Source of the DNA: a virus
Taxonomy: Duplodnaviria; Caudoviricetes
Length of the DNA stretch: 64,000 nucleotides
Direction: 5' to 3' (one strand)
IMG/VR virus record: IMGVR_UViG_3300032038_000052
Location: 14,613-78,612 of that record
A model generated the notes under the pieces. The model had not been told where the DNA came from, made no database searches, and worked only from the letters and a program-made list of their open reading frames with translations. A program made the position numbers and the translations under genes. This document shows, piece by piece, positions 3,108-63,999 of the stretch (position 1 is its first letter; each line of letters begins with the position of its first letter).

Positions 3108-3734
3108 ATGAATAAAACAAAATAGATTGGATTAATAACTGAATTATCGTGCTAGTTATATCTTTCTTAGCTTGGGTACAATATTTGTACTCCATTATGC
3201 GAAGATTGTAGATATGACATGATTGCAGATTTTAATGGTATATTAAAAAAAATACAAGTTAAGACATGTCGTGAAAATAATAATAAGACTGGAATAGAAT
3301 TTTCAACCACTTCGACAAGAAGCAACTCTAGTGAAATTGTTAGGTAGAAATATTCAGAAAATGATGTTGATTATTTTGCGACATTCTATAATAATAAGTG
3401 CTACTTAATTAAGAATATCTATAGTAGCACATGTATTACATTACTATATGATGGGAATATCACTGGAAATGAGTGTATTCCAAAACATCTTTCTGATTAT
3501 GAATGTGAAAAACAGATTAAAAAAATATTAAATAATAATGAAGACACATTACCAAAAAGAGTAATATGCCAATATGATAAAAATTGGCAATTAATTGCAA
3601 CGTATAATTCCGTAAGGGGTGCTGCAAGAGCACTTGGAGACGAATTAAAAAATGCACATATTGCCGATGCAATTAATGGTAGACGCAAAATGGCATATGG
3701 ATTTTATTGGAAAGAAAATATAGATATATAGTAA
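3108..3734 (+). CDS. PD-(D/E)XK homing-type endonuclease (I-Ssp6803I/PDDEXK_5-like) with C-terminal NUMOD1-like DNA-binding domain; TAG=Gln; 208 aa
   Basis: Missing from the ORF track. With 5 TAG read as Gln: KQIGLITELSCQLYLSQLGYNICTPLCEDCRYDMIADFNGILKKIQVKT...DVDYFATF, then VICQYDKNWQLIATYNSVRGAARAL...INGRRKMAYGFYW; TAA stop. Confidence 0.8.
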
Positions 3735-3760
3735 TTTAATGATTAAAAGGAGGTGCTACG

Positions 3761-4957
3761 GTGGCCGTAGTAAAACAAGAAAAAAAAGTCCCCATAGCAC
3801 AAGTTCGGGCAGAAAATGAAAAGATGAAAAAGTTACTCGAGGATGGAGTAAGATGCATTGTCTGTGGGGTAATGAAAGACAAAAGCAAATTTTATGTGAA
3901 TACGAACCCTCGTTGTAAATGTGAAGTTGGGTGTGTTTGTAAAGAATGTGCTAGGAAAGTGGCTTTACAAGTTGATGATGACGGAATCGAGCATGGCGTT
4001 ACTAAAGAGTCTTGCATAGAGGCACTTAAACTTTTAAATAAACCGTTTGTTAATTCCGTATGGGATTCAAGTGTATAGGAATCTGATAACCTTGTTGCTG
4101 GGAAAACAAAGTCAAATCCTTGGGTCGCCTATATTAAAAATATCGCAATGGTCCAATGGGTTGGCATGGACTTCTTCGATTCTGATATGTTCAAGAAAGG
4201 TGTTGTTGGTGGTGGACAATATGTTGTTAAAGAGCCTACTACTGCTGAGGATTTGTCTGAAGATGTAAGAACTACTTATGAAATTAATAAGAAGACTACT
4301 CTTCGTTTTCTTGGCTATGATCCATTTGAAAATGAACCGCTTGAAGAACAGCCAATCTTATATGCTAAATTGGTAAGTTACTTTGATGATTCTGTAAGGG
4401 ATGACGGCTTAAAGCTTGAAGCCGTTATAGAGATTGTTCAAAGTTTCAAAGATATAAAAACAATTAATGATGCTATCTCAAAATATAAGAAACAGCTTGG
4501 GGAAAATCCGGCTGTCATTGCGACAATTAAGTCTCTTGCTGATACTAAGCAAAAGATGATTAATTCTGCACTAGCTCTTGCAAAAGACAATGGAATATCA
4601 GTCAACCATAATAACAGTAAGAGTAAGGGGGCTGGAACTCTCAGTGGTATTATTAAAGAGATGTCTGAGATGAATCTTGATGACATAGAAATTAATACAT
4701 TTGATTATGAAACAAATGCTGCCATATCTCAGATTATGGAGGCAAATTTTAAAAATCAGATGGAACAGCTTAACCCAGACGAAAATGATTGGGAACGAGA
4801 GGTGCAGCATCAAGCAAAATTGCTACATAAATTATAGAAAGAAAGGGACGACGCTGTCGAATATTGTAGGCTACTCAAAAAAGAAAACAAAGACTTAAAG
4901 GATTTTCTTATTGAGAAAAAAATAATCGATGAAGCGTTAAATGTGATAGATGAGTGA
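3761..4957 (+). CDS. Zn-finger-containing packaging-region protein (putative terminase small subunit); TAG=Gln
   Basis: GTG start with GGAGGT RBS; CIVC...CKEC motif; ORF-track pieces 3761..4078 and 4148..4837 share a frame; TGA overlaps the TerL start. TerS assignment is from position only. Confidence 0.7.
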
Positions 4958-6869
4958 AGAAATTGTTTTGTTGGGTGATAAAATAAAAGAATTTAACCCT
5001 AAGAATTTCACGTATTTTGTGAAGCCTACTTACTATGATATGTCTAATCTTAGGCTTGAAGGATTAAAGAAGACTGCTCAGATAGTTTAGTGGGGACGCA
5101 GAAACCCAGTAAAGTTTTGTGAGCGGTTTATGGGAATTGAATTCCTTGATTATTAGAAATATGTTTTTATGGAGAGCTGGATAACTCCGTATGTCGTTTG
5201 GTGTATGAGTAGATCTAGCGGTAAAACAACACTCGGCAGTCCTTTCTTAATGGCAAAGACTCTTCTACTTCCATACTTTGAGGGTTATATACTTTCTGGT
5301 ACTGGCGCACAAAGTATTGGAATGATGAAAAAGATTGAGGCAATAACCAAGAAAGAGATTGCTAGTTTTACTGGACTTACCGATGTATTTATGAATGAAC
5401 TTGTAAAGAGTCAAGCGAATTCAAATGGTTTTTCTCATAACCCAAATTCGTGGAGTTATAAATTGTATTCTGGTTCAACTATAGCTACGGTCAATTCAAA
5501 CTTTGATGCTAGTCGTGGTAAACGCTCACGATTAAATTTCTATGATGAGGCATCTTATGTTCTTGAAGATATGTATACTGCTACCCTTCCATTCGTAACA
5601 TAGAATTCAGACTTCGCACTTGGTGGAAATATTGATGTATCATTATTGCCGCCAAACTTCCCAAACCAAGTTATTTTTGCATCGTCTGCCGGATCTGTAG
5701 ATGATTATTTTTACAGAATGTATAAAGAATATTCTTTGCATAGTATGGCTGGGGACAAGAGATATGCTTGTTTTGATATAGACTGTGATTTAGTTATGAA
5801 TGCTACATACAATGGAAAAGTATATCCTGTTCCGCTTCTTACGCAAGAGAAGATAGATTCTGAAATGAAGATTAATCCTCTTAAGGCAAATAGGGAGTAT
5901 AGGAACAAATTTGATATCGATGGCGGCGACTAGATTATCGTTAAGAAATCACAGATTTTGAGGAATAGCGTTGTCAGAGCACCAGAACTTGTAAATGCAG
6001 ATGGTGACAGCTTATATGTTTTAGCATGGGACTTAGCTGCTAAAAAAGATAATAGTATCTTAAGTGTTGGCAAACTACTCCATTCTGATAAACGTGGTTG
6101 GTATATGGAAATTGTTAACTGTATTAATCTTCTTGACAAAGAGACTAGGAAACCACTAACTACTCCAGAACAGGTTAAGCGTGTATAGGAAGAGTTAATA
6201 AATTACAACGGCGTTGGAGTACCAGATTATGCGAATATCAAATATCTAATGATGGATGCTGGATCTGGTGGTGGTGCTACTTAGGTATTAGCTTATTTGT
6301 TTGATGATTTTTATGAAGAGCATCATAAAGGGGAAGAAGATTTTCATCACAAAGGATTGATGGATGAAACATATGAATTCTGCCAACCTTACATTAAGAG
6401 ATATCCAGATAATATAGATTTAATAAGAATGATTGAACCAACAAAGTATAAAGTACAAATGTATACTGAATTGATAGAATTGATTGAGCAGGATTTAATA
6501 TCATTTACTGCTGATTATGATTATCATGGTAATCTTACATTTCTCACAGAAGAAGATGGCGAGGAAAAGGAAGAGGTATACAAACTTAGTCTTGAGGAAG
6601 AGTAGGCATTAAAACAGATTGATGCTATGAAAGAGGAAGTGACTCATATGTATAGATATAAATCGTCGAACGGTAATATACGTTATGATCTTGCTCCTGG
6701 TTTTTCAAATATAATTGGTGATGATAGAAGCTATACGCTTTGTCTTTTGGCTCATTGTTTAGCGATGATGAGATAGGAAGATTAGATTCGTCAAAGAAAA
6801 AAACCTAATAGTGATGATTTGGTTAATCGCTTATCAATCCGTCCAGCAAGACGATTTAGTTCATTTTAA
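4950..6869 (+). CDS. terL: Terminase large subunit; TAG=Gln; 639 aa
   Basis: Walker A-like SRSSGKTT, Walker B-like NFYDEA, nuclease motifs LAWDLA, DAGSGGG and GDDRSY; 9 in-frame TAG (5088, 5154, 5601, 5931, 6186, 6282, 6603, 6774, 6783); TAA stop. Confidence 0.93.
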
Positions 6870-6883
6870 GGAGGTGTTTGCTG

Positions 6884-8392
6884 ATGGCAAATTCAACTGA
6901 GGTGTCTAAAGCGGCACCAGAAAAGATGAGTAAAGCAGAGTTTGTGAAACAATATTCGGATGAATATTTGAAACAACGTTTTGCTGATTCACAAGATGCC
7001 TTTAAGAAGTTAAGAGATTTTACTAAAAATTCCACCCGAAATGTTGGTGTTTTTGATAAAGAAACTCTTCGTGGATATTTTCAAAATATAGTTAGTAACG
7101 AAGCGAGACTAAGGAATTTATCTTGGTATTTATTCTATAGGTCGCAAGTATATGCTAGGCTTGTGCTGTTTTTCAGCAATATGTTTGTTCTTTATTGCAG
7201 ATCAGTGATACCGAATCATGATTTGACAAAGACAAATAATCCAACAAAGACATTAAAGTCTTTCTAGGAAACTGTTGATGAACTTGATAAGATGCGACTG
7301 CAACAGGAATTTTATCCAATATTTGTAACAAATTTTATATAGGATGTTAGTTATAATGTTTGGTTTGAGGATGATGATGGTGTTTTTGTTCTGCCATGGC
7401 CAGCGGATTCTGCGAGGATTATTGGTAAATATATGACTGGAGAATTTGCATATGCTGTTGATGCAACATACTTGCGTAGTCATCAAGAACTGATTGAATA
7501 TTTTCCAGAGCCATTTCAGCAGATATATAATGATTATCAATCTACTAGCGAGAAGTGGCAACCAATGCCTGAACAGTATTCTCTATGTACAAAGTACAGA
7601 TCAGAGGATACTGAGACAGCTCTTGGGCCACTCATGCCGATGGCTAATTCACTTATTAATTTGTTAGACCTTGAGGATATTCAAGCAGTAGCGGCGGAGC
7701 AGGAAATATATAAATTAATTTGGTATGAGTTGGAAACACTTGATGGCACTGATACTCCAGATGATTGGAAAGTAGATGTGGATTTGGCTGTTAACTATTT
7801 TAACAAAATGGTTGACGAAGCAATACCGCCGAATATGTCTGCTGCAATTGTCCCAGGTAAGTTGAATGAAATATCGTTCCCAGACAGTACTGCTTCTGAT
7901 ACTACCAAAGTTATGAAAGCGACAGAAACAGTTCTTAATACGGCTGGTGGTGCTGAAGTACTTAATGGAAGTACTATAAATAACACATATGCATTCAAGC
8001 TTGCGACACAAGTAAATACTGAATATGCTATTTCCTCTCTTCTCCCACAGGTGCAGAGTTGGGTTAATCATAGATTGCAATTAGTACTAAGCGATCCTTG
8101 CAAAGTAAAATTCTTCCCAGTTAGTGTTTATACACTTCCAGATTATAAAGAACAATTACTGACTGCTGCGCAAAATGGTTTCCCAACTATCTTTGCTTAT
8201 GGTGCTTGCAATGGGTATTCAGAGAAAGATGTTATAGCACTAAATAATCTTGAAGTAGATATTCTTAGTTTGGCAGATAAATTCAGACCGTTGAGCACAT
8301 CTTATACGCAGTCGAATGTTGGTAGACCAACAACTCCAGACGATGAGTTATCAGAATCTGGTGATAGAAGCAGAGATACTGCGGCAGAATGA
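6884..8392 (+). CDS. Portal protein; TAG=Gln; 502 aa
   Basis: Directly follows TerL; AGGAGGTG RBS; LRNLSWYLFYRSQVYARL motif typical of SPbeta-like portals; TAG at 7265 and 7340. Confidence 0.85.
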
Positions 8393-8409
8393 TTAAAGGG
8401 ATGGTATAA

Positions 8410-8589
8410 ATGAAAAATAAATTTATTAAGACAAATGATGAAAATACTGCAAAGTTGCTCCGAGATTCTGGGCTTGTTGAGCTTGCAAAAGAGGGCGATA
8501 AGTGGGTATTTGTTAATGAAAAAGATAAACTAAAATTTAGTACTGATGATTTGGAAGGATGTCATGTTTCAGACATCCTTCGTTTCTAA
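8410..8589 (+). CDS. Small hypothetical protein (59 aa)
   Basis: MKNKFIKTNDENTAKLLRDSGLVELAKEGDKWVFVN...; fills the portal-protease gap. Confidence 0.7.
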   Translation: MKNKFIKTNDENTAKLLRDSGLVELAKEGDKWVFVNEKDKLKFSTDDLEGCHVSDILRF

Positions 8590-8631
8590 TAATCTCCTCT
8601 CGGAGAAAATCTTGAGAAAGGAGTGAGTGTT

Positions 8632-10308
8632 TTGCATAGGAAACTGCTAACATTTGAAGACCTTGTGAAATTCTGCGATGAACATGATTTTACAAGGTTT
8701 AGTTCAAAAGAATCTGGATATCAGATTTGTGTGCAAATTCCAGCCTAGTTTAGTTAGGAAAAGTCCGATGACCCAACTATGTTATATGCAAATGTATTAG
8801 CTTTTCATACTGGCATTAATAGAAACCGATCCAACTTGACAGAAGATGCGGCTAAGAAAGCAATTAAGAACTTAGCATACAAGCCAGTGCTGGCGAACTT
8901 CTGTGAAATTGATGGTGTAAAAGATTTTACTAGCCATGATTTTGATGTAGATGAAAATGGCGAATATGTTTATTTTGAAAAGTAGATTGGGTGCTTTACA
9001 GCTGATAGTGCTTATATGGAGCAAGACCCAGATCACGATGATAGAATGAATGTTTATGCAAAAGTTGCAATACCTCGTGAGTATACTGATGCCGCTGAAA
9101 TCATTGAGCGTAAAAATGGTACTCGTGTTAGTGTTGAACTTGCTGTCAATGAGCTTTCTTATTCCGCTAAAGACAAAGTGCTTATGCTGGAAGATGTCGA
9201 TGTAATGGGACTTACATGCCTTGGCGTTGACCCAGATACTGGCGAAGAAGTCATGGAAGGTATGGAAGGTGCACATATTCAGATTGAGGATTTTAGCGTT
9301 GAGAATAATTCTCTTACTTTCAACGCTGAAATGATTAATTCGATTGCTGATGCCGTTGCAGAACGGCTTAGTAATAAAGCGGCAGATACCGCACAACTAT
9401 TAGAGGAAGGAGGAAAAAATCAAGTGAAATTTGATGAGTTATTAGAGAAATACGGCAAAACCGTAGAAGATATTGATTTCGATTATGAAGGACTAACGGA
9501 TGAAGAACTTGAAGAGGCATTTGCAAAAGCATTTGGCGAGGAAGAACCTTCTGCCTCTGAACCCGAAGAGAATCCAGAAGAAGATGAGCCTGTGAAAGAG
9601 TTTGCTGATGACGATCCAGTAGAGCCAGAAGAGCCTAGTGAACCTGAAGAGCCTGAGGCAGTAATTGATGATGATACTCTGCCAAGCAAAAAGATTACTC
9701 ATTCTGTAACATATGGTGAAATTACAAAGGATTTCTCTGTTAGTCTTCAAGACAAAATTTACGCTTTGAGTACGTTGGTTAATGACACATATTCTGAAAC
9801 GGATAATGCCTGGTATGATGTTACTGTGTATGATGATGAGAAATATGTTGTTATGAAAGACTGGTGGAATGACAAGGCATACAAGCAGTCCTATAAAGTC
9901 AAGAAAGATGTTTATTCACTTGTTGGAGATAGAGTTGCAGTATATGCACAGTATCTCACAGAAGATGAGATAAAGAAACTTGATGATATGAGGGCTAACT
10001 ACTCTTCTATGTCTGACAAACTTGCTCAGTATGAGGCGGAGCCAGAAAAGATGCAGATTCTGAATTCTGATGAATATTCTCAGATTGCAGAGACTGAAGA
10101 ATTTTCGGAGCTTAAGACTGTCGAAAAGCATTTTGATATGTCTGTAGAAGAAGTTAGAAAGGCTGCTGATGATTTACTTCTTGCGTTTGCAAAGAATAAC
10201 AAGCTTGAGTTCAACTCACAGCAAGAAAAGAAACCTGTTGGCGTAAAACTGTTTGGTCAAAAGAAATCAAATAAGACTGGACGGTATGGAAGTTTATTCA
10301 AAAAGTAA
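8632..10308 (+). CDS. Prohead protease fused to an acidic scaffold region (YonD-like); TAG=Gln; 558 aa
   Basis: TTG start after AAGGAG; LAFHTGINRNRS, YKPVLA, RVSVEL and GLTCLG motifs; E/P/D-rich linker; TAG at 8746, 8755 and 8983. Confidence 0.8.
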
Positions 10309-10340
10309 AATAAATATTAAATAAGAAAGGAGATATTGTT

Positions 10341-10820
10341 ATGGCTTATGGAAAACCCAATATGACTAAGCATGCTGTTGCTTTCCCGTCCAAGGTTCTG
10401 GCTGGAAGCATGGGTGCTCATATTTATAACATCACGCTCACCACAGCTGCTGATAACGGTAACGTAATCGGTCGTGGCGATTGGAATTCTTTTGATAATT
10501 ATGCTGAGGCGGCAGCTCCAAGTGGAATCACTGGTAAGATTGTCGATCAAGCAGCTAATGGCAACTGGTATGTAGAGATTACTGCTGTTCCAGCTGCTAA
10601 AGAGGCACTGGTTGTTTACAACTCCCCGATAATCCCTTATGAATCTCCGAGAGAACTCGCTGATCTCTCCAATTTCTTCAATGATGCAGATGAGGTTGTA
10701 AAGGCTTATGTTTGCACGGTTGGCGATATTTGGGAAGTATCCGAAGAAGGATTCTCTGGAACTCCAGCAAAGGGTAAAGCACTGACTGTTGCTTCTAAGA
10801 AGTGGGCTGTCGGAGCTTAA
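10341..10820 (+). CDS. Capsid decoration/auxiliary protein
   Basis: 159 aa between the protease and MCP genes; ADNGNVIGRG...VGDIWEVSEEGF pattern; strongly biased codon usage. Confidence 0.65.
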   Translation: MAYGKPNMTKHAVAFPSKVLAGSMGAHIYNITLTTAADNGNVIGRGDWNSFDNYAEAAAPSGITGKIVDQAANGNWYVEITAVPAAKEALVVYNSPIIPYESPRELADLSNFFNDADEVVKAYVCTVGDIWEVSEEGFSGTPAKGKALTVASKKWAVGA

Positions 10821-10851
10821 TTAAAATATTAAAGGAAGGAGGTAATAGAAT

Positions 10852-11982
10852 ATGAAGAAACTTAATTTTTCTGCTCATGTAATGAATGTATTCTCCGAGA
10901 TGGAGACTAATTATGATGAAGTAAAGAATCTTATGTTCGATCTTGCTATGGGCAATGAGATTTATGATGAAGAGTCTGGCCGTGTTGTTCCAAAGGCTGA
11001 AGCTGAAGCAAAACTGCGTAGCATTTGCCAGAAGGTATTTGGCGTAAATGAAAACTCTTCCAAGAGAGAACTTAAACGTGCTTACAGAGAGCATGGTCGT
11101 GAGTTCTTTGATATCATTGAGGAAGTTATTGATGTTGTAATCAGCAATGGCTTCAAGGATAATGAATTCTTCAACAACTTTGTTGATTATAGAAATATTG
11201 CACTTGGCGATGCTTATGAGTTCTATATGGAGAAAGATGTCATTCTTTCCATCGCTAAAGTTGGTGTAAGTCATCATGACTATATCCTTCAGAGACTTGG
11301 CAAGGGCGAGACTCTTACCATTCCTTATCAGAGATATGGTGCTGCAGTTGGTGCAGATATTAACATGTATATGATTGGTAGAGAAGACTGGACAAAGCTT
11401 ACCAATGCTATTGCAAAGGCATTTACTGTCCAGATTCAGCAAGAAATCTATGCAGAACTTCTGAATGCTGCAAATAAGATTCCGGCTGCAGTTAGAACTG
11501 GTTTTGTTGGAACTGGTGCACTTTCTGCTACCACAAAGGATGCTTTTGATGCAATCCTTGAGAATGTACAGACTGCAAATGAGTCTGCAATTGTAATTCT
11601 TGGTACTAAGACTGCTCTTAAGAAGCTGAATGCACTTTCCGATGTTAATTGGAGAGCACAGTCCCTTAAGGAAGATGTTTCTCATTCTGGAAGAATGGGT
11701 GACTATGAAGGTACTGTTCTGATGGAGATCCCGCAGAGATTTACTAGCCAGACAGATCTTACTCCGCTTATTGATAACACCAAGCTTTGGATTCTCCCGG
11801 CTGATTAGACTGATAAGTTTATCAAGATGGTCGATGTAGGCGAAACCGAAATTGATGAAATCACCGAGAAGGGCGAAGAGCATGGTCGCTGGGATGACAT
11901 CATGAAGTATGAAGTACAGCGTTCCTATGGTATTGCTACACAGCTTGGACGCTATTTTGGTCAGTGGACTCTTACTGCATGA
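10852..11982 (+). CDS. Major capsid protein; TAG=Gln; 376 aa
   Basis: Position and size; FFDIIEEVID...FFNNFVDYRNIALGD motif; one TAG at 11806-11808 followed by 57 more codons to TGA. Confidence 0.88.
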
Positions 11983-12016
11983 TGACTACTGATTTATGAT
12001 TAAAAGGAGATAACAA

Positions 12017-12583
12017 ATGGCAGCTACTAGAAAAAGAACTACAACTGCTACTGAACAAGTAGTAGAAAAGCCAGAAGTAAAAGTTACGGCACAAAAGGAA
12101 AAGCCTGTCGTAAAAGAGAAAAAGAAATTCTCTGATTCAGATGGTATTGTTTGCCGTTCTATTATTCAAGGCGGACTTTATATGGAAGGGGCCAAAACTC
12201 ATATGCTTTATGAATGGGTCGAATATGGAGACAAAACACAGGTTGAGTACGCTGATCTTGCGGCTGCTGTGAGAACGAGGTCTTCCTATTTATTCGGGCC
12301 AATGCTTATTATTGAAGACGAGGACTTTATTGAGGAATTCCCCCAACTAAAGAAGTTCTATACTGAGAACTATACAGTAAGTGATCTTGAAATGGTCCTT
12401 GCGTATCCGTTAGAAAGAATGCTTGAAGAAATTTCGGCACTTCCCAAAAGTGCCGTAGAATCTTTAAAAGTTCTTGCGGCATCTTCGATTAATGAAGGTA
12501 CACTTGATAGTGTTAAAAAGATTAAAGCACTTGATGAGATTTTTGGAACGAACTTAAGTTTATTAGCTGAGTTCAAAAATTAA
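12017..12583 (+). CDS. Hypothetical virion/head-associated protein
   Basis: 188-aa ORF with AGGAG RBS, directly after the MCP gene. Confidence 0.75.
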   Translation: MAATRKRTTTATEQVVEKPEVKVTAQKEKPVVKEKKKFSDSDGIVCRSIIQGGLYMEGAKTHMLYEWVEYGDKTQVEYADLAAAVRTRSSYLFGPMLIIEDEDFIEEFPQLKKFYTENYTVSDLEMVLAYPLERMLEEISALPKSAVESLKVLAASSINEGTLDSVKKIKALDEIFGTNLSLLAEFKN

Positions 12584-12603
12584 TTTAACGGAGGTGGTAT
12601 TAT

Positions 12604-13062
12604 ATGACCTCTGAATTTGAAGATATCTATTCACGGTTTTTTCTCCGTGTTGAAGATTACAATATTGTGGGCTTAGATACAAATCTAGTTAATGAAATGA
12701 TGAATGGATGGATGAAGTCTGTGTTATCACAGCCGTATATTAGACGGCTGTTTGATACATTGACATTCGATGAAGATATTGAACAGATTGAATATACAAT
12801 GAAATACCCTATCTCCGAAGATGAGGACAAGGATTTTGTAGAGGAATTGATTGCTCTTGGCATGGTAGCCGAATGGGTTTCCCCAAAGTATCATTCTACT
12901 CTTCTAACTTCTTAGTTTTATTCTAATAGCGAATAGAAATACTATTCTTAGGCTAATCATATGACCGAATTAAAGGATATGTACCATAGGGCTAAGAATG
13001 ATGTTCGCAAATTAATTAGAGACAGAGGGTATATAAATAACGTATATATAGGTGAGTCATGA
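12604..13062 (+). CDS. Putative head-tail adaptor; TAG=Gln
   Basis: MTSEFEDIYSRFF...; reads through 3 TAG to TGA 13060-13062, which overlaps the next ATG. Confidence 0.65.
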
Positions 13063-13391
13063 ATACTAAATATGGCTCATACTCTTCTGAGTAGATTAAT
13101 TCTGTAAAATACAAGATTCGAAAATCCATCTATTTTTTACTTCTTTATGTTGACCCACAAACTAGGGATGATTATCCCAATGTAAATGTTGCAGATGCGT
13201 TTCGCAGTTTGTAGCGTAAGCTCAATGGATTAAATAGTATTTTGCTTGAACCACCAGAATTGGTTCAAACCATGAGTCTTCTTGAAGCGGCATTGGCTGA
13301 GTTTTAGAGTGATTCTTTCAATTACCATACTTATAGGAAGCTGATATTGGATGCTGGGTCTGAGATTATGCGTGTAAAGGAAGGTGATTGA
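13059..13391 (+). CDS. Hypothetical neck-region protein; TAG=Gln; 110 aa
   Basis: MNTKYGSYSSEQINSVKYKIRKSIYFLLLY...; ATGA coupling to the previous gene; missing from the ORF track. Confidence 0.7.
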
Positions 13392-13392
13392 T

Positions 13393-14583
13393 ATGATTAC
13401 CTTTGCTGATTTTCAAAAGATACATAAGACAGATATCCCAGGTCGTGCAAGGAAAATGCAATCTGATATGATCATGGATGCTACATTTAACCAAGATATA
13501 CAATATTAGGTTGGATATTTTTTTGACTATTACCATACGACTCCAGAAAATCGGTTAAAGCTAGAAGGTTTTAATCCTAAAGATGATCCAAATCCTATTC
13601 CAATCGATGTGAAATTTATTGCGCATAGCAAAAAGACATATGAGAAGGATGAGGTAACAATGCATATTCAATTTCGTCCTGGACATGAATGTGCAGTTGA
13701 TTATTATGATGAAGTATTTGGCAAACGTTATAATGCTAGATACCCAATAGGTTTATATGTATGGTTATAGGGAGAAGATGGTATCTATAGACGTTGGCTA
13801 GTGGTTGCTACTGCCGACAGGGATAAAAATCAATTCCCAACTTGGGAAGTATTGCGCTGTGATGAAATATATAGGTGGATAAAGAACGGGAAATATTATG
13901 AGTTTCCAGGTGTTAGCAGAAGCCAGAATTCATATAACTCTGGACTTTGGTTGGATTATAAATTTCAACAGCCAGAAGACCAGGTTAAGTTCTGCTTACC
14001 ATTAAATCGTGATACGGAAATGCTTTATTATAATACCTACCTAGTGATTGATGCTCACGTACTTACTGAGCCAAGAGTTTGGCAAATCAGTAAGATAAAT
14101 CGTTCGAATTCAAAAGGTGTTGTAGTGTTTACTTGCGCACAGGATCTTGCGAATTAGCATACTCTAAAAGCGGATTATGATGAAGATGGTAACGTGACCG
14201 CTTGGTGGGCGGATTGGAATGAAACCGAGGTCGCTCCAACTCCTGCTATTGTTGACAACAGCGAACACGATGAATTAGTCACAGCGAAAATAACATGTTC
14301 TGGGAAACCGCAATTTAAGGTTGGCGGTTCTTCAAAGACATTTACAATTTCGTATTATGACGATGATGTTATTATACAAGACCACGAGGTTGGCACTTGG
14401 TCATTTTCGATTGATGGCGAAAATGTCAATGATGAACTTTTGAGCATAATCAGTACAGATGATGCCAATAAGATTAAAGTTAAGTTCTTGGGTGATGACA
14501 TGTATGTCGGCAAAATACTAACAGTTACAAACACATTTGAAGATGTCACTGCATCTATGCAAATTGAAATCATCGCATTATAA
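13393..14583 (+). CDS. Putative head-closure/neck protein with C-terminal Ig-like domain; TAG=Gln; 396 aa
   Basis: Track pieces 13801..14157 and 14194..14583 share a frame with ATG 13393; beta-rich C-terminus. Confidence 0.65.
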
Positions 14584-14594
14584 GGAGGGATAGC

Positions 14595-15164
14595 ATGGAT
14601 TTGACGAATGAACAACTTCAAACTCTCCTTCAGTATAAAACTGTAATGGATGATGACAATGTGCGTTTTAAAGAAATTATTAAAAAAAGTTTGATAGATG
14701 ATCCATTGATTATCTATTTGCTTAATAACAAGGAGTTGGAGAGCGTCGAGGCAGATCCTAGCGACTATCTCGGCGTTAACATACTCCCAGCTTTTTTAAT
14801 TCATCCTACATAGCACAATGTCTAGAACTTTATTTGTTATGAGACATCATGGAAAGAAATGCCAAGATATAATGGGAATGCTACAAAGTTACAACAGATT
14901 ATTTTTTATGTTTTGTGTGAAGAAAAGACAAACATAGAAAAACGTACTGGTATAGCACGCCATGATTTAATTGGTGCGAGGATTAAAGATATATTTAATT
15001 GGACCAACAAATTTGGTACACAATGCCATGTTGTATCTGATGTCCCATCTGTAACAGATAATGATTACGCAACAAGAACTATAACGTTTGAATTGCTTAG
15101 TGTTAATGATATCGTCAAGACGAGAAATGGTTCTTCTTTGGTGGTGAATAAGATTGGCGGATAA
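14595..15164 (+). CDS. Putative tail terminator/completion protein; TAG=Gln
   Basis: In-frame join of 14595..14813 and 14859..15164; GGAGG RBS; position before the tail genes. Confidence 0.6.
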
Positions 15165-15960
15165 ACAGAATCAGCCTAAATTTGACCGTCTAAAGATGTA
15201 TTTCGGAGAACCATTTGAAGTTGGAAATGGTATGACAGTATTGATACCAACTGTTGGGGATATACTGAGATTAGATAATTCCGACATAACATTTTATCAG
15301 ACGTTATATATTTGGATTGCGAATCCTACAACTTATAGATTAATGCTATGGGACAATGGTATTGATTGGAATAAAATTTCTGATTATGAATTGTTTTTGA
15401 TGTTATATAAAACCGAAAATCCAGATGTCAGCAAAATGATGTTTGGTAACGTGGACTTTCAGTAGTTTGGACTATTCCATAAAACTGTCTAGGAAAAGAA
15501 TGAAGACGGAGAAATGGTTGATGTATAGAAAGTTACTTTATATAGTCCCGAATAGGATATAGAAATATCTGAGTAGGATTATACTCTTATTTCTTAGTAT
15601 TTAAAAGCTGCTTTCAATATATATCCAAAAGTAGAAAAGGCGAAGGGACGGATTACAAAAGAATCAATTATTGAAGAAGAGCGCATGAACCTTATAGCTA
15701 AGGAGCGCAAAGGAGAAGATATACCTACATCTTCTCTTCTTCCATTGATATCTTCTTGTATTAACCATCCTGGATTTAAGTATAACCTTAATGAACTCCG
15801 TGAAGTTAATTTTGTTCAATTTATGGATAGCGTACAGAGACTACAAATCTATGAGTCTACTTCTGCTCTTTTGAAGGGAGCATATTCTGGTTTCTGTGAT
15901 ACATCAAAAATTGATAAGGATGAATTCAATTTTATGAGGGATATAGTTCCCGCAAAATAA
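15154..15960 (+). CDS. Conserved hypothetical tail-region protein; TAG=Gln
   Basis: TTG start; 15154..15465 and 15685..15960 share a frame and are separated only by TAGs. Confidence 0.7.
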
Positions 15961-16005
15961 CTATGTTTATAACAAATTAATATTATAGAAAAGGAGGATA
16001 TGATT

Positions 16006-16800
16006 ATGGCCTTTAAGTTAGATGACCTTATTATTGACCGCATATAGGTGGCTACTGCTGAGGATTCTCATGGTAATGTTCTTTATACTCTGACTCAGCT
16101 TTAGGAAGCAACTATCAATATCTCCGCAGAGTCTAACGATGTTACCGACAAAGACGGCAACCTTGTGAAGAGATTCTGGAGAGCAAAGACTGGTGAGTTC
16201 ACTGCAACTAACGCATTCATCAATCTGAACATCCTTGGTGAGGAAGCTGGTTCTGGTAAGATGGAAGCAAATGCAACTCGCAAGATCACCGCTCCTGGTA
16301 TCATTGTTGCAAAAGCTTCTAATGGAGCTACTGTTACCCTTGCTAATGTAACTGGCACTCCAAAGGTTTATGGCATGGAGACCAATGGCACTCTTGGCAC
16401 TGAGTTCCAGACAGGTGGAACAGCTACTGCTACTACTTTTGTATATGATGACCAAACTGGCGTTGTAACTCTGCCTCTGAGCGGTGATTATGTTCAGTAT
16501 CTCATCCGTTATGACCGTGAGCTTACTTCTGGTGCGGTTGAGATGACCAACATGGCAGATAAGTTCCCTGGCACAATCCGTCTTGTGCTTAAGGTTCTGT
16601 GCGTAGACCCATGCGAAGCTGATACTTTACGTGCAGCATATATTGATATCCCGTCCTTCCAGGTTAGCCCTGAGAGTGAAGTTTCTCTGAGTTCTGATAA
16701 TCAGACTATTGATTTCAGCGGATCTCTCCAGGTTGACTATTGTGATGCCGACAAGCGCCTTTACAGCATCTATGTTGTAGAAGATGACGAGGAAGAGTAA
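16006..16800 (+). CDS. Major tail (tube) protein; TAG=Gln; 264 aa
   Basis: AGGAGG RBS; MAFKLDDLIIDRIQVAT...QLQEATINISAESNDVTDKDGNLV; TAG at 16045 and 16102; IPSFQVSPE motif; followed by a hairpin. Confidence 0.8.
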
Positions 16801-17520: not shown

Positions 17521-17557
17521 GGGGTTGGCTCACATTCATGAGCTAACCCCTTTTTTT
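17521..17557 (+). terminator. Rho-independent terminator
   Basis: GGGGTTGGCTCA / TGAGCTAACCCC followed by T7. Confidence 0.8.
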
Positions 17558-17590: not shown

Positions 17591-17866
17591 ATGGATAGAG
17601 ACAATATAGTTCATTCCGATGTAACAGGAAAAGACTACTATCCATCTTAGGTTGTTCGATTGGTGAATATTCGATAGATATGTAGTTATATGCGTCTTGG
17701 AAAAATCCCAGTAGATATTTATCCATCTATTGATTTTAAGTCGAACAATCCTGTATTGGTAGTTTTGTTTGATAGGAATGATACAAAAGAGGCATATAAC
17801 CGATGGTGTGAAAGCACAAACTTGTGGGAGGAACTGTAGAATGAAGCCAATGATTTACATGGATAA
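17591..17866 (+). CDS. Hypothetical protein (DUF5659-like); TAG=Gln
   Basis: MDRDNIVHSDVTGKDYYPSQVVRLVNIRQ...VVLFDRNDTKEAYNRWC; 3 TAG; TAA stop. Confidence 0.65.
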
Positions 17867-19231: not shown

Positions 19232-19246
19232 TTAAATTGTTATGTA

Positions 19247-19270
19247 GGCCCTCATTTTATGAGGGCTTTT
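19247..19270 (+). terminator. Hairpin/terminator immediately upstream of the tRNA
   Basis: GGCCCTCAT / ATGAGGGCT followed by TTT. Confidence 0.55.
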
Positions 19271-19346: not shown

Positions 19347-19350
19347 TTCT

Positions 19351-19455: not shown

Positions 19456-19457
19456 CT

Positions 19458-20345: not shown

Positions 20346-20365
20346 ATCTAAGGAGGTAAAAGGAT

Positions 20366-38496: not shown

Positions 38497-38520
38497 TGGA
38501 AAGGAGGTACGACAAGAAAA

Positions 38521-55905: not shown

Positions 55906-55929
55906 CTTTCGGGGAGAGAAGGAGAAGTT

Positions 55930-56098: not shown

Positions 56099-58342
56099 AT
56101 GGCTTTACAGGTTTGGTTACCGCTGAATGGGAATTTAAATAATCAAGGATTATCAAATTATCAAGTTACGAATACTAATGCGATAATAAACACTAATGGT
56201 AAAATTGGGGAATGTTATCAATTTGGGACTGGCCGAAGTTATTTAGAATTACCAAAAGAATGTATGCGAAATTTATCCACAGAATGTACAGTGTCATTTT
56301 GGATTAAATTTATAACAAGAAATTCAAGTTATGAAACATACTTTTAGGCTGGTCTTGGTGGCTCTGCATGGAATGATTATGTATTTGGATTATTACGAAA
56401 CAGTAATGGTAATAGTTGTTGTTTTACTATTAGTAATGGGTCTTCTGCTTCCAATGCTAGTTATACGACACCAAATTTAACAGAATTAAATACTTGGTAT
56501 CATATAACACTAGTATATAAAACTGGTCATTGTTTAGTATATATAAATGGAGAATTGTATTAGGATTACACAACTACTATAATTCCAGCATTTGATAAAA
56601 TTACTACAATTACAATAGGATGCAGTAATACTAAAACAACATATCAAACAAATTGTTTAATAAATGATTTCCGAATATATGATGAAGCCCTCTCTCCTCG
56701 TGAAATTAAAGAGATATCCAAAGGGTTGGTATTACACTATCCGCTTAATAGAGAAGGGTTTGGAGTAGACAATATTTGCAAAAACAAAGATGTGAATTTA
56801 TCTGGCAGTGATTATGGGTCATATAATACACGTTCTTATGACTTAGAAACACATATTGGAAAAATACAAGTTACAGATACAAGTCATGCCTGGAATGCAT
56901 GGAGGTTTGGATCCACCGATTTAGATATCACATGCCAAGAATTAACTACTGGAACAAATACATATACTGTATCTGTTGACATAAGAGTAACAAATTATAC
57001 TACTGGGACAATTGGATATGGATTTGATTTTCGAACAAATAATCAAGTATCTGTTAGAGCCTCATCCGTTCTTACAACAGAACAATGTGATGGTAATTGG
57101 CATAGAGTATCTGCTACATTAACTACAAATAATTCACAAAACAATCAATGTTTGTGGAGCATGGGGTCTAGTGGAACCGCACATGGTTCGCAAACAACAA
57201 TAGAATATAAAAACTGGAAGTTGGAAAGAGGAAGCAAAGCAACGCCTTGGATACCGTATAAAACAGATAGCTTATATCATGTTATGGGACTAGATGATGG
57301 GACAACCAATTTATTGCCAGCGAATAGGCAAAACTTCAATTGTCAAAATAGTGATGGTATGAGTTACACTTATACTACATCTCAACATGGTACATATACA
57401 TTAAGTGGTTATTTAACAAGAAATGCCTCTGATGGCAATTGGGTAAACCCAAGAATAACAATATATGCTCGGTATAGTAGTGGTTCAGATACATTGGTTT
57501 AGGATTGGGATCATTTAGTAGCAGATGGTAAGGAACGCTATTTTGAAATAAGTGTAACAACCGATTCCAACAGAACATTAACTAGTATTGGTGGGTGGAT
57601 TTTAGACCACAGTGGAGGAACTACTGGGTCGAAGAACACAATAGGTAGACATATTTAGTTGGAACTTAAGGATCATGCAACATTATACACTCCAACGTCT
57701 AGAGACTTTATTTTTTATGATGTTTCTGGCCATGGATATAATGGATCGGCGATTGGTGTTTTTACGTACAGTGGAGATACCCCAAGATATCAAGTATCAA
57801 CCGTATTTAATGGCATAGACAATGGAATACTCATTGAAAATCTTCCGTTATCTAATATCATTAATGCTGCCGTTACTTATTCGTTTTGGATTAAGCCATC
57901 TAGTGAAAATGGGGCAAGATCTGTTTATTTTGGTAGTTATAGTGCCATTTCTTGGAGTATTGAAAAAACAGCTGGCAATATAATTCGAGGTTACTGGAAT
58001 GGTAGTCCAGACGTAGGCTATAGCGGTGCGACTATTACTGATGGTATTTGGTAGCATGTGTGTATTACAAAAAACGGCACATCTGATATAAAGGTTTATA
58101 TTGATGGAGTATTAAAAGCAACATCTACCGCAGCTCATAGTGCTCTTACATTCCCCACAACATATAGAATTGGAAGAGATGTTAGGTCTAACGATGGAAC
58201 TCCATATAAAGGACTTATGTCTGATTTTCGTATTTATGCAACCGCTCTATCGGCTGATGATGTTATGGAATTATACCATACTCCCATTACGCTTTCAAAC
58301 AACGGTACTTTCCTAACACAAGGCGAGTATGTGGAGGTGTAA
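56099..58342 (+). CDS. LamG/concanavalin-A-like lectin domain protein (two LamG plus CBM-like modules); TAG=Gln; 747 aa
   Basis: WYHITLVY...LVYINGE...INDFRIYDEALS and WQHVCITK...SDFRIYATALS motifs; KLERGSKATPWIP. Confidence 0.85.
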
Positions 58343-58343
58343 T

Positions 58344-60149
58344 ATGGGATTAGTATATTGGGCACCTTGTCTGGGCGAATTAAAAAATCAAGGATTATCC
58401 ACGGCATAGTCAACATCCACATTATTTTCAACAGACGCAAACGGAAAAATTGGCAAGTGTATTAAAGTTACAGGTGCTATTGATTCTGGATTGCTAGGAA
58501 CTTAGTGGGACATAAATGAAAATAGCATCACAATGATGGGATGGTTCAAATTTCCAGAAAGCGAAATTAGATCTATCGTTAACGGATATACAACCTGGGA
58601 TTCTACTCATCCAAATATGCTATGTTTGTTATTAGGTAATAATAGTTATGGCGGTTTATCATTGCATTTGGTAACTAATAATATCTATTCTAGTGGAACC
58701 ATTGGTACGTTTACGAATCTAAATGTAATGGCATCGATTAGATCTGGATCAAGTTTAGTAAGAACATCAGTATCTTCCATTCCTTTTGATAAATGGGTAC
58801 ACATAGCAGGCGTATTTGATATAAATACAAAAGTGGAAAAAATATATATTAATGGAACGTTATAGAAAACAAATTCTATTGTAAATCCTCTTGCTAATGA
58901 TATTCCGATGAGAAATTTTTATATTTGTAACAATCAAGTAGACGGAGGAAATGGACCAGCGAAGTATTTTCCGTTTTATTGTAATGATATAAGGGTTTAT
59001 ACAGAAGCGCTTAAAGATGAATAGATTAGAAAGATTTCATAGGGGATAGTTCTTCATTACCCATTAAGCAATCGAGGGTTTGGTGGAGACAATTTGTTAA
59101 CAAATACTGATTTTAATGGTGTTTCAAAAAAATACACATTAAACTCAGGTAGTGAAGGTGGTCTTTGGTTCCCACCGACTTCATGGGAAAGAAATACAGA
59201 ATATACTGTAAGTTGTAGACTAAGAGGCAATGCAAACATGAATTTATACCTAATTAGTTCTAGTGGTAATTAGGCATTATTATGGGTAAATAGAGGAGAT
59301 TTATCGACTACTGATTATAGATTTTTTAGCATTACATTTACATCAAAAAGCGATAGAGATGTGTCGAATTTATATATATGTACTCGTTATGGAACAAGCA
59401 ATTCGAGCGTTGGCGATTGGTTCGAAATAGCACCAAATAGCTTAAAATTTGAAAAGGGTTCTACTGCTACTCCTTGGATACCAAACTCATCTGATGCACT
59501 CTACTCTTCTCTTCAACTTGGTTCTACCGCAGAACTTGATTGCTCTGGGTACTAGTATAATGGAACGAAAAATGGAACGTTTGTTAATGCCGAATCTCCA
59601 ATCAATTAGGGGTGTTATGTCTTTAACGGAACAGATTCTTGGATACGAACAACTGCTAATACATAGCATATTGGAACTGGCGATTTTACAATTTCTGCAT
59701 GGATTAATCTAGAGGCTTCAAATAAAACTTATTAGCCTGTGATTTCGAACAAGACAACTGGTGCGGCTAGTGTGGGTTGTGCAATATATTTTAACCATAG
59801 TCAAAATAAGTTTTTGTGGTCAACCGCTGATGGCTCTGGGGCTACAGAAGTTTGGACAGCCAATATATTTTCAGATATATATGATAAATGGACGCATGTA
59901 GTAATGGTGAGAAATTTCTCAGATGCTAAAAAGGGATATTTTTATATCAATGGAGTTAGATAGGAACTCGCATCAGTTCCGGCAATTCGAAATATTTCTA
60001 CAACACATGAGCTTGTTATTGGTGCTTTATATACGGATCATGTGAACTACAGATGGACGGGGAAGATATCCGATGTAAGAATGTACGCTACTGCACTAAG
60101 TGAGGATGCAATTAAAGAATTATATATGATGGGAGGTGGCGTTGTATGA
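58344..60149 (+). CDS. LamG/concanavalin-A-like lectin domain protein, paralogue of the upstream gene; TAG=Gln; 601 aa
   Basis: WVHIAGVFD...IYINGT...NDIRVYTEAL; KFEKGSTATPWIP; SDVRMYATALS. Confidence 0.85.
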
Positions 60150-61414
60150 GTGATGTCACCAATTTAATATACAATGGAGATTTTTCAAAAGGAACTGATA
60201 GTTGGAGTGGATCTGGAGTAACTGTATCTAATGGTGTATTGACTGTTACTGGAGATTTAATATAGAGTGGTGGATATCATATTCCAGTTTCTTCCAATAG
60301 ACGATATAGAATATCTTTCGATATAAAATTTAATACAGTAAGTGGGACATCTTCATTTTATATTGCGTTAAGACCTTATGATAATAAGAAAGCATCTATT
60401 GGTATTGCCTCAACAAATAAGCCATATGGAGCAAAAACAAATACTACCTTGGCAGCAGAATTAAAACCAGGAGATACAACTGTAACTCTCACTAGTTCTG
60501 CTAATTGGCCAACAAATAGAACTTATCAAAGGGTCGGAATATGTGAAAATAAAGCTTGGGGATACGGAAGAGCTATTGCTACATATTCATATTCATCTAT
60601 TTCTGGGAACGTTATTACATTGAAATCAGCTTATTCTGGAACGGTAACTTATCCAGCTGGGACAAAAGTTGCTGAATTTGAAGATGGGTCAACATATTAC
60701 TACCCAATCTATTTTAGTGGGAGTAATCGCACAACTGATTGGAAAACATGGTCGGCTGAGTTTAATGGTGGGAATAACATGAGGTATTCATGTTAGTATT
60801 TTATATTTTCGACACTAGGGTATTCTCATAATTATTCATTGAGAAATCTACGAATAGAATGTATTTCTGATTATTAGGAATGCCATAAACGTGACTATGA
60901 AATATCTCCACAATTCTATAAAACAGGAATTATTCAAGCCCCATTTTTTAATGAGGTTGGGATGGATATAAGATATGTTAGGGACACCACAAATGGAAGT
61001 ACGGCTAATGCCAATAGTCATTGGTGCGAGTTCTAGGTATTTAATGATGTTGGTGAAAATATAGCCTGGGGACGTGATGTTAAAATTGACAGCACAAACT
61101 ATAGCAATAGTGTTATAACAGATGGTATTGTTAATAGCGCTTACATTGGGACAAGTAGTGGATCACATTCGCTGATATTTGATATCGGGTTTGTTGAGCA
61201 TGTAACAAAAATCAAGATTTGGCATTACTATCCAGATGGCAGAACTTACCATTCAAACGTAACAGAAGTATCAGTAGATGGGACGAATTGGTTTACGGTT
61301 TATCAAGGCGAAAAGCCAGAAACATCTGCTGGAAATGAAATAATCCTATCTCCTGCTTATATGAGTATTTACAAAAGTGGGGATATTTGGGCTAATGAAT
61401 TTATAGAGTATTAA
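60146..61414 (+). CDS. CBM-like plus F5/8 type C (discoidin)-like protein; TAG=Gln; 422 aa
   Basis: NLIYNGDFSKG N-terminus; IRYVRDTTNGSTANANSHWCEFQV...KIWHYYPDGRTY...SVDGTNW C-terminus. Confidence 0.7.
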
Positions 61415-61445
61415 AGAGCGGTCAACCACCGCTCTATTTTTATTA
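61415..61445 (+). terminator. Rho-independent terminator
   Basis: AGAGCGGT / ACCGCTCT followed by ATTTTTATT. Confidence 0.7.
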
Positions 61446-61464
61446 TAGAAAGGAAGGTGACGCA

Positions 61465-61758
61465 GTGGCTACTACAACTGTATTAGAAAATGTTGTTGCA
61501 GATTCGGTATAGACAGAAGAACTGAATTCTGGAAATCTGATTGTCCGTGGTGCGGCAAAGTTTGTAAACCCTATCTATGCGGAAATTCATGGGTCATAGG
61601 ATATAAACCAGGTTGTAAACGGAACTGTCGCAAATAATGCGTATGTTCTATTCTCAAATGGGACAAATCTTTTCAAAGTAAGCTACGCCGATCTGATATA
61701 GGACTTATCAACGAAGGTTAGTGTCACCTTCGCAGATTCGGAAGGAGTTGGATACTGA
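61465..61758 (+). CDS. Hypothetical protein; TAG=Gln; 97 aa
   Basis: GTG start after GGAAGGTG; 3 TAG; TGA overlaps the next ATG. Confidence 0.6.
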
Positions 61759-63536
61759 TGAGTAAAGTGTTAATAGATGACAGATATCTCACGGATATTG
61801 CCAACTCCATCCGTAAGAAAAGAGGAACACATGATTTAATTACTACCGACAGTATGGCTGCGGAGATTTTGAATGCTGAAATCGCTTCAAACCCAGATGA
61901 AAAGTGGGTAAGACCAGATGATTGGCCTGATTATTCTACTATTGATATAACTAGTTTTGAGGGGATGTATTTTACATACGACACTAGTCAAGCAGACCAT
62001 TATGATGAATGGGTCGGCATTTATTGTGCGTGCTCCGGCGGATATAAAGTAGAACGAGGGCAAATTGTTAATGGAGCATTCTAGGTATAGGCGACTACAA
62101 CTAAAGCTAGTGGAGCGGTATTTGAGGAATGGATTGAATCTACGATTACTGGATATGTTGTATATCGTGTTACAGCTGCGACAGCTGGGTAGCCGATTAC
62201 GAGCATTGGACTGCGTGATATGACAGCAACATTGAGGACGGATGGAAGGACAAATAGAACATATTCATACTAGCCATTAGTGGAGAGATATGGACGGCTT
62301 CCGAATTTAACAACATTCTCAAACTGGGGGAATTTTTTTGTATAGTCTGATACGATCTTAGACTTGAAGAAACTTACAAGTTTAGGTTTTGTTTGGGGAA
62401 ATTGCTATAATATAGAGAACATTGATATAACTGGGTATAATTCTGAAGTAACTTCATTATCATAGACATTTTATTGCTGTAGGAGACTTAGATATCTTAA
62501 TGAGAGTGATAAATTCGTTACTTCGAAATGCACGACAATGTATTGTGCGTTCAATGAATGTTATATGCTTAAGTTTTTAGATTGTAGTGATTGGGATACA
62601 AGCAACGTCACAAGAATGGATAATCTTTTCACCTCATGTTGGACTTTATAGAAAGCAGATGTTTCGAAGTGGAATATAAGTAAAGTAACTATAATGACTA
62701 ATATATTTAATGGTTGTTATTTATTAAAAACGATTGACGTGTCAAGGTGGGTAGTAACTTTGCCTACGAGTTTTGGGGCCATATTTAATGCTTGTGCATC
62801 TGTAGAAGAACTTGATTTATCTGGATTTGATTCAACAAACGTTACTAGTTTTTCTTCAATGTTTAGCGGTTGCACTAATCTGAAATCGCTTGATTTGTCT
62901 CATTTTAACACATCAAAAGTTACGACTATGTATTACATGTTTAATGCTTGTCGAAATTTGGAGCATTTGGATGTGTCTCATTTCGATACATCAAAGGTAA
63001 CAGATTTCAGATGTATGTTCCAATATACTATAAACCTGAAAGAATTGGATATCTCGAATTTCAGCTTTGAATCGGCGATATATATCAATTCGTTTTGTTG
63101 GAATACGAGTGCCAGAATTAAATCTTTACCGCTTATTAGCAATTTGACATCAGGCAGAGTTACTAGCAGTTATGCAGATTATGCTTTTGGGTATATGATG
63201 TCACTACAAGAAATGGACTTGACTGGGTTTGATTTAAGCGGGGTTACTGCGCCCAGCTATGTTTTTAGATATAACTATAGTATGGAGAAATGTATTCTTC
63301 CAGTTTCATTGCATTATATAGCTTAGTATTTCTTCGGTGACTGCCGAAATTTGAAAACAATTGTTATGCCATCGACAACGCTTGTAACATTAACAAACAC
63401 AAACGCATTTTCTGGAGCAAATCGTGCAAAGACAATTTATGTCCCAGATAATCTCGTTGCCTCCTATAGGACGGCAACTAACTGGAAGAGCCTTACGAAT
63501 GTTACTTTCGCAGGGCTTTCAACATATACATGGTAA
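61758..63536 (+). CDS. BspA-type leucine-rich-repeat protein (DUF285/LRR_5-like); TAG=Gln; 592 aa
   Basis: Repeats such as LDLSGFDSTNVTSFSSMFSGCTNLKSLDLSHFNTSKVTTMYYMFNAC; ends TIYVPDNLVASYRTATNW. Confidence 0.85.
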
Positions 63537-63576
63537 TTATAAATATTTGTTTATGGAAAGATGGAGGATAATCGAT

Positions 63577-63999
63577 ATGATTATAACAGCGAAATTAAAT
63601 AACGATGATAGTAAGGTATACTATCTTGTATCTTGGAACTCGCAGGATTTTGCGAACACTATGACAATTAAAGTACAAGGTAATGACTTATAGAAAGTAA
63701 GCAACGATTTTTCTGAGATTACGAAGCTTGAGATTTTCCAAGATGGTAATCTTATTGCAACATATTTGGATTTAGATACATTTACTGAGTTAAGTTATCT
63801 GAAGAATGAATACTGCCCAGGCGAAAGCAAATTCTGTGATGCGTTTAGACTTCAGTTAACGAAGATTGATATTGTGGCACAGGTTCAAAGACTTGACGAG
63901 CAAATTAATCCAGTTATAGATATTGATAAGATGACGCTGGAAGAAGTAAAAGCTTGGAAGGTTAAGGAACTTGGGGAAGTTTGTAGGGCGGAGATATCT
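63577..63999 (+). CDS. 3'-partial hypothetical protein (DUF4376-like tail-associated, tentative); TAG=Gln
   Basis: GGAGG RBS; open to the window end; TLEEVKAWKVKELGEVCRAEI motif. Confidence 0.55.

Follow-up and report, generated by a model that had tools for sequence, protein, structure and literature searches.

Which amino acid, if any, does UAG specify in the structural genes of a phage whose reading frames are interrupted by TAG and by no other stop codon? The question is raised by IMG/VR virus record IMGVR_UViG_3300032038_000052 (Duplodnaviria; Caudoviricetes), a linear record of 78,612 bp without a terminal repeat, of which we analyzed bases 14613 to 78612, the right-hand 64 kb (hereafter, the window; positions refer to it unless the genome or another contig is named). 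An initial annotation, made from the letters of the window and its open reading frames (ORFs), had proposed that TAG is reassigned to glutamine across the morphogenesis region. Comparisons with relatives indicate that the late (virion) genes of this large gut or rumen phage, which its gene order identifies as an SPbeta-like siphophage, very probably use UAG as a codon for glutamine. Recoding of TAG to Gln in late genes has already been published (Borges et al.; Peters et al.; the phage phAss-1), and the novelty lies in the lineage, not in the kind of recoding.

TAG as a sense codon in the late genes

From position 3039 to the end of the window, 27 of the 31 plus-strand genes carry in-frame TAG (225 codons in total) and none carries in-frame TAA or TGA, just as the initial annotation had described the structural genes. 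Under the standard code (translation table 11), the plus strand from 3039 onward falls apart into over 80 short ORFs, none exceeding 616 amino acids (aa); with TAG as sense (table 15), it resolves into a tight array of genes whose spacing runs from an overlap of 14 nt to a gap of approximately 250 nt and yields ORFs of 5,359, 3,024, and 1,506 aa. The gene set obtained in this way has a coding density of 96% and ends in 23 TAA and 11 TGA codons; the earlier remark on TAA or TGA as the end of every gene is correct, yet it holds by construction once TAG counts as sense. Among the Gln-type codons of this set, 225 TAG stand beside 242 CAG and 357 CAA, such that TAG makes up 27%.

We tested the code by the union coverage of the window by ORFs of at least 150 codons, having dropped summed six-frame ORF length, which is noisy in AT-rich DNA and is also inflated by reading TAA as sense. 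Coverage rises from 0.48 with table 11 to 0.96 with TAG as sense, the comparison of coding densities proposed at the outset, and reaches 0.54 with TGA and 0.66 with TAA as sense; because the gain is largest with TAG, the effect is TAG specific. The 5,359-codon frame contains 107 TAG and no TAA or TGA, and in the other plus-strand frames TAA and TGA each occur approximately 400 to 740 times per 21,333 codons. A chance origin of the TAG-only interruption is excluded. When the ORF sets of the two codes are compared, annotation with table 11 destroys the terminase, portal, tape measure, fiber, and nuclease genes, including the two nucleases whose loss, along with that of the tape measure and fibers, had been predicted, and this lineage needs table 15. 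The share of TAG among Gln codons is uneven across the late genes, ranging from 7 to 17% in the portal, capsid, and 3,024-aa fiber genes to 50 to 75% in four of the five distal fiber/lectin genes (56099-63536).

The early genes are readable under either code, and the recoding is concentrated in the late structural genes. In-frame TAG is absent from the first three genes of the window (243-2893), dependence on TAG beginning with the gene at 3039. The genes of the 14.6 kb that precede the window are likewise free of in-frame TAG, among them a tiled block of minus-strand genes, all with stops of TAA or TGA. The only early gene to end in TAG (genome 10158-12902, L025; 912 aa) does so in the form TAG-GAC-TAA, and thus stops within two codons under either code; relatives carried by Enterocloster phages bear the annotation RNA-dependent RNA polymerase (RdRP)-like polymerase. 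At genome 2403-3142, ORFs that look like plus-strand early genes with a TAG end are spurious and lie opposite real minus-strand genes. We found four relatives of this phage (G0) in IMG/VR, all recoded and with portal identities of 76 to 86%, and designate three of them G1 to G3 (G001 to G003; G1, also L017, is IMGVR_UViG_3300012983_000045). G3 is complete, at 160,883 bp with direct terminal repeats, and its TAG-bearing genes are concentrated in a plus-strand structural block at approximately 70 to 150 kb.

Alignment of TAG positions with glutamine

To identify the residue, tblastn alignments were mapped back to codons, and only well-aligned contexts were counted. Among the recoded IMG/VR relatives, the partners of TAG are TAG itself (18), CAG (36), and CAA (32), followed by codons for E (13), K (9), and D (9). 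Gln codons thus account for 68 of the 144 non-TAG partners (47%), with Ser at 7 of 144 and neither Trp nor Tyr represented, and ordinary CAG and CAA codons in this phage show a matching partner profile. CAA lies two mutations away from TAG, yet its count is close to that of CAG, which places the signal at the level of the amino acid and not of mutational proximity. Restricted to the TAG sites of G0 itself, 39 of 72 partners are Q (BLOSUM62 sum of 188 for Q versus 80 for E). In the portal, capsid, and connector genes, TAG columns hold only TAG, CAG, or CAA among relatives, the single capsid column being CAG in G1, G2, and G3. L152, a metagenome contig 91% identical to this phage over 10.8 kb, gives 20 TAG-TAG, 8 TAG-CAG, and 1 TAG-CAA pairs and 6 other partners seen once each.

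The large terminase (TerL) and its neighbors extend the comparison to phages that use the standard code. In 119 full-length homologues of TerL, Q is essentially invariant at four of the nine TAG columns (residues 47, 69, 218, and 445), and the last of these columns lies in the peptide DAGSGGGAT-TAG-VLAY, which the initial annotation had quoted together with LPAD-TAG-TDKF, found at residue 319 of the capsid protein. Two TerL homologues could be traced to DNA and are translated with table 11, in SPbeta-like loci with YonG, YonD, YonB, YomW, and YomU. Across the standard-code SPbeta-like loci (L026-L029), Q occupies 8 of 18 well-aligned TAG sites, no stop occurs in any alignment, and Q ranks first by summed BLOSUM62 score (35 versus 12); both TAG sites of the YonG-like gene align to Q. 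The recoded relatives, the TerL columns, the standard-code homologues, and the tRNA(CUA) described below all support Gln, and the expectation that TAG columns would align with Gln is borne out, with Gln far ahead of any other residue and Trp and Tyr absent from the main comparison.

The YonG-like and TerL genes (3761-6869) are 60 to 68% identical to those of the standard-code SPbeta-like phages, and individual conversions of CAG or CAA to TAG are directly visible in this module: the standard-code TerL has Q at five of the nine TAG sites. In the following region (6878-16800), the portal and capsid proteins of the same standard-code phages are only approximately 26% identical, and in relatives with portals 78 to 86% identical, TerL is 34% identical or undetectable.

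The suppressor tRNA and the extent of reassignment

The window encodes an amber suppressor tRNA with anticodon CUA, one of two tRNAs in this fragment. Its acceptor end has a U1.C72 mismatch, G2-C71, G3-C70, and G73, features which, together with U35, we take to fit the identity set of glutaminyl-tRNA synthetase (GlnRS) as known for Escherichia coli. In the body, the D loop contains GG, the T loop reads TTCGA, the anticodon stem has 5 bp, and the variable loop has 4 nt. ARAGORN labels the molecule tRNA-Pyl, an assignment at odds with this canonical cloverleaf: tRNA-Pyl has a short D loop without GG, a 3-nt variable loop, a 6-bp anticodon stem, and no TTCGA T loop. A close parallel is E. coli supE (glnV44), a point mutant of a cellular tRNA-Gln that inserts Gln at UAG with partial efficiency and that shares the CUA anticodon, a weak 1:72 pair, G2-C71, G3-C70, and G73; unlike supE, the present tRNA is phage borne, has a true 1:72 mismatch and C33, and must work near-completely.

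The anticodon loop reads CC-CUA-AC, with C33 in place of the near-universal U33. L152 carries an identical tRNA, and L151, a metagenome contig whose flanks are 66% identical, retains C33, U1.C72, and G73 with compensatory changes in the acceptor and T stems; C33 is therefore not an error. The D arm and anticodon arm recur, identical bar position 33, in 80 IMG/VR suppressor tRNAs examined (many on contigs of approximately 100 kb), all 80 of which have T33, and the tRNA of the crAss-like phage cr53_1, annotated as tRNA-Gln, is 86% identical over the D-arm/anticodon-arm stretch. The core of the suppressor is thus common to crAss-like phages of a different host phylum. The tRNA(CTA) of Acinetobacter phage ME3 has C33 as well.

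Inside the recoded block and ending just upstream of the tRNA is a TAG-free island (17769-19231) that encodes a NifS/IscS-like cysteine desulfurase and an overlapping small ORF. Terminator-like hairpins at 17521-17550 and 19246-19268 bracket it, the island end lying 8 nt before the tRNA. L152 has the island (77% aa identity), and G1 to G3 lack it; a role of the desulfurase in tRNA thiolation or Fe-S supply would be speculation. Right after the tRNA, block 19369-20351 is a clean 983-bp insertion, consisting of an HNH endonuclease gene and its leader, that is absent from L152 (L152:10851-10864; blastn). A tRNA(CUA) followed some 40 to 110 nt on by a homologous TAG-containing HNH gene recurs in L151 (L151:1104-2149), and the pair is found in G1 too (L017:14825-15875, minus strand), elsewhere in the genome, beside a homologue of window gene 2354-2893. 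A scan of viral contigs with an HNH peptide pattern returned nothing. The G1 suppressor (L017:15785-15875, minus strand; 91 to 92 nt; Rfam score of 55.8 bits) has a long variable arm and G73, and a search of the phage collection with it gave no match.

In the mechanism that we propose, an unmodified host would read the TAG-free early and middle genes, and the genes from 3039 onward would remain incomplete until the suppressor is active, which may give it a part in timing or gating. The tRNA(CUA) would decode UAG in the late genes, host GlnRS would probably attach Gln to it, just as the E. coli enzyme does with supE, and host release factor 1 (RF1) would presumably be outcompeted at TAG. Gating of late genes by TAG is a hypothesis of Borges et al. 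(10.1101/2021.08.26.457843). The tape measure gene sets a stringent lower bound on the efficiency of suppression: if p is the probability of read-through per codon, the yield of full-length protein is p^107, and a yield of 10% needs a p of approximately 0.979. With 107 TAG in one gene, reassignment must therefore be nearly complete, although no release-factor gene was found.

Several points weigh against UAG as a glutamine codon here, or against the route by which it would be read. The support is comparative throughout, the record is only 46% complete (CheckV), and the probable host is inferred from relatives of the phage. The genes found do not explain how RF1 would be defeated at 225 sites: this fragment and G1 to G3 contain neither an RF-1 domain (release factor 2 [RF2] and RF1-related proteins) nor a GlnRS/GluRS (class Ic synthetase) catalytic domain in searches with positive controls. 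The tRNA itself has the unusual C33, and its overall similarity to the 31 tRNAs of a Lachnospiraceae metagenome-assembled genome (MAG) is about equal for tRNA-Trp, tRNA-Gly, and tRNA-Gln(CUG); BLAST of tRNA(CUA) against two MAGs gave only chance 14- to 17-mers with no tRNA beneath. No tRNA(CUA) was detected in G3, where ARAGORN with introns or low thresholds gave only noise, and the G1 suppressor is class II-like and Ser-like in shape, though G1 TAG mostly pairs with Gln.

These features bear on the competing explanations to different degrees. Translation of TAG as another residue (Ser, Leu, or Tyr by a class II suppressor, Trp, Glu, or pyrrolysine) could draw on the ARAGORN label, on the long-arm G1 tRNA with G73, and on the equal resemblance of tRNA(CUA) to host tRNA-Trp and tRNA-Gln, but ARAGORN gives the Pyl name to any CUA anticodon, E. 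coli amber suppressors derived from tRNA-Trp are charged mainly with Gln, and the alignments point elsewhere. Gln is the leading partner, E, K, and D come next as they do for ordinary Gln codons, and the TAG codons of G1 itself align to Q 14 times and to S 4 times; we consider a residue other than Gln highly improbable. Only a little less improbable is a dual meaning of TAG, in which partial suppression at a leaky stop would produce truncated as well as full-length proteins. The lack of a release-factor gene, a C33 that might reduce decoding efficiency, an early gene that ends in TAG with a TAA backup two codons on, and a mild enrichment of TAG in the first fifth of genes (Kolmogorov-Smirnov P = 0.026, too weak to build on) would all fit, but with 107 TAG in an essential gene, even 95% read-through per codon would leave 0.4% of the product full length, and codons that make up half to three-quarters of Gln positions in several genes are unexpected for a costly stop. 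The notion that the TAG codons are damage or artifact, whether from decay of a defective phage or from assembly or sequencing error, has nothing in its favor beyond the fragmentation seen with table 11. It is refuted by interruption of the frames by TAG alone, by the retention of 20 TAG positions in the independent contig L152 and of others in four IMG/VR relatives, and by full-length homology to intact phage proteins, and its probability is negligible.

A further proposal concerns the means and not the meaning of the codon. A dedicated code-switch module could be formed by the TAG-free desulfurase island together with the adjacent suppressor, in which C33 and U1.C72 are conserved. On this account, because read-through of at least approximately 98% is needed and no release-factor gene occurs in the fragment or in the complete relative, RF1 would be neutralized, or decoding boosted via tRNA thiolation, by a mechanism as yet undescribed. 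We regard this as unlikely.

Relationship to known phages and gene content

The precedents named in the initial annotation, Lak and crAss-like phages, are indeed published cases of recoding, but this phage is neither, and among published cases the phAss-1 group comes closest. phAss-1 (OQ749652) is a 136-kb gut siphophage of probable Clostridia, placed in a proposed Phassvirus group, in which TAG interrupts 41 ORFs, including those for TerL, the tape measure, the portal, and fibers, with a conserved Gln at TAG in TerL; it has 36 tRNAs, among them three suppressor tRNA(CTA), and no aminoacyl-tRNA synthetase (Babkin et al. 2023, PMC10607447). The two phages share recoded late genes, a tRNA(CTA), and capsid proteins 28% identical over half their length. 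They are only remotely related, however, the present phage having an SPbeta-like gene order, a far larger tape measure, and two tRNAs of which one is a suppressor.

For two crAss-like phages, TAG-to-Gln decoding in late genes has been proven by metaproteomics (Peters et al. 2022, PMC9523058). Code 15 crAss-like phages such as cr53_1 (NC_055889) resemble this phage in the D arm and anticodon-arm core of the suppressor, apart from position 33, but they are podophage-like Crassvirales of Bacteroidota with unrelated proteins, and their tRNA differs in its acceptor stem, carries U33 and A73, and includes an encoded CCA. More broadly, late-gene TAG-to-Gln recoding with suppressor tRNAs occurs in many gut phage clades with standard-code Firmicutes or Bacteroidetes hosts; the alternative code is limited to genes for structure and lysis, TAG stops are depleted, and suppressor tRNAs were detected in approximately 40% of TAG-recoded genomes (Borges et al., bioRxiv 10.1101/2021.08.26.457843). 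The Agate phages of the same study (clade mean of approximately 154 kb, with cattle and pig gut representatives) include two TAG-recoded genomes that carry RF2. The likeness of our phage to them is limited to size, as judged from G3 (160.9 kb), and habitat, and no RF2 was found here. The phage thus represents a further Firmicutes-type lineage in which late genes are amber recoded, and it leaves the established picture unchanged.

Assignment to the SPbeta-like siphophages is based on homologues of YonG, TerL, the portal, YonD, YonB, YomW, and the YomU tube that are collinear with L026-L029 (tblastn of window proteins against Pfam-named genes). Bacillus phage SPbeta and SPbeta-like gut prophages share this gene order, the RdRP-like phage RNA polymerase, and a long tape measure, but these relatives use table 11 throughout, and outside the TerL/YonG module their proteins are approximately 25 to 45% identical to those of the present phage. 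A published link between SPbeta-like phages and code 15 was not found in the literature. Large siphophages of Bacillus, Lactococcus, Brevibacillus, Clostridioides, and other hosts have portal and capsid proteins approximately 25% identical to the present ones, and megablast of 20 kb of this DNA against the phage collection gave no match.

The host is probably a member of the Clostridia. TerL relatives 67 to 71% identical occur in two Lachnospiraceae MAGs, in one case on a 378-kb contig, and other TerL relatives lie in table 11 SPbeta-like prophage-type loci with an integrase gene; relatives of the phage RNA polymerase are found in Enterocloster phages. As TerL belongs to a mosaic module, its location in Lachnospiraceae MAGs is only a pointer to the host. 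Both MAGs encode a GlnRS scoring above the NCBIfam cutoff, so direct charging by GlnRS is plausible.

Table 1. Features of the window, with strand, number of in-frame TAG codons, and basis of assignment
Feature	Position	Strand	In-frame TAG	Basis
ClpP-like prohead protease	243-878	+	0	PF00574, phrog_94
Mre11-like exonuclease	1141-2340	+	0	phrog_284
179-aa gene	2354-2893	+	0	
PD-(D/E)XK + NUMOD-like endonuclease	3039-3734	+	5	PF11645 (2e-19), PF22083
YonG-like protein	3761-4957	+	2	60% identical to table 11 L026-L029 genes with PF27269 YonG_N
Large terminase (TerL)	4950-6869	+	9	phrog_2; 68% identical to standard-code homologues
Portal	6878-8392	+	2	phrog_2739 (2.7e-72); both TAG columns TAG/CAG/CAA in five relatives
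YonD-like head protein	8623-10308	+	3	phrog_3313; homologous to L026-L029 YonD_N genes
Major capsid protein (YonB-like)	10852-11982	+	1 (at 11806)	tblastn to Bacillus phage PJN02 major capsid
Head-tail connector, tail-completion, and tube genes (six)	12604-16800	+	19	Synteny with YomW and YomU_Tube of L027-L029
NifS/IscS-like cysteine desulfurase	17769-18977	+	0	PF00266 (8e-78); TIGR03402 (454 bits, below cutoff)
85-aa ORF overlapping desulfurase gene	18974-19231	+	0	
Amber suppressor tRNA, anticodon CUA	19276-19347	+		ARAGORN; Rfam general tRNA model, 43.3 bits, end to end
HNH endonuclease	19458-20345	+	4	phrog_374, PF14311, PF13391
Tape measure protein, 5,359 aa	22376-38455	+	107	PF10145 at residues 1837-2044
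Distal tail protein	38494-39717	+	5	PF20195, PF20753
Tail tip and fiber proteins, 1,506/829/3,024 aa	39717-55874	+	18/4/10	Partial homology in G1 and G3
Lectin-domain and leucine-rich repeat (LRR) proteins (five)	56099-63536	+	5, 11, 4, 3, 8	PF13385, PF03382, PF13306

The other genes of the window are given in Table 1. The tape measure gene is flanked by chaperone-sized genes on one side and the gene for the distal tail protein on the other, and homologous giant ORFs occur in G1 (5,777 codons) and G3 (4,755 codons). No homologue of the endonuclease encoded at 3039-3734 was found in G1 to G3, a PDB sequence search with the capsid protein returned nothing, and the fiber protein at 44252-46741, a variable gene, had no match in the relatives' records. 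The lectin-domain and LRR proteins at the distal end are probably receptor binding. Finally, three TerL homologues of approximately 990 aa (P0020, P0064, and P0092) are some 350 aa longer and have LAGLIDADG or Hom_end Pfam matches, and they are probably intein-containing terminases.

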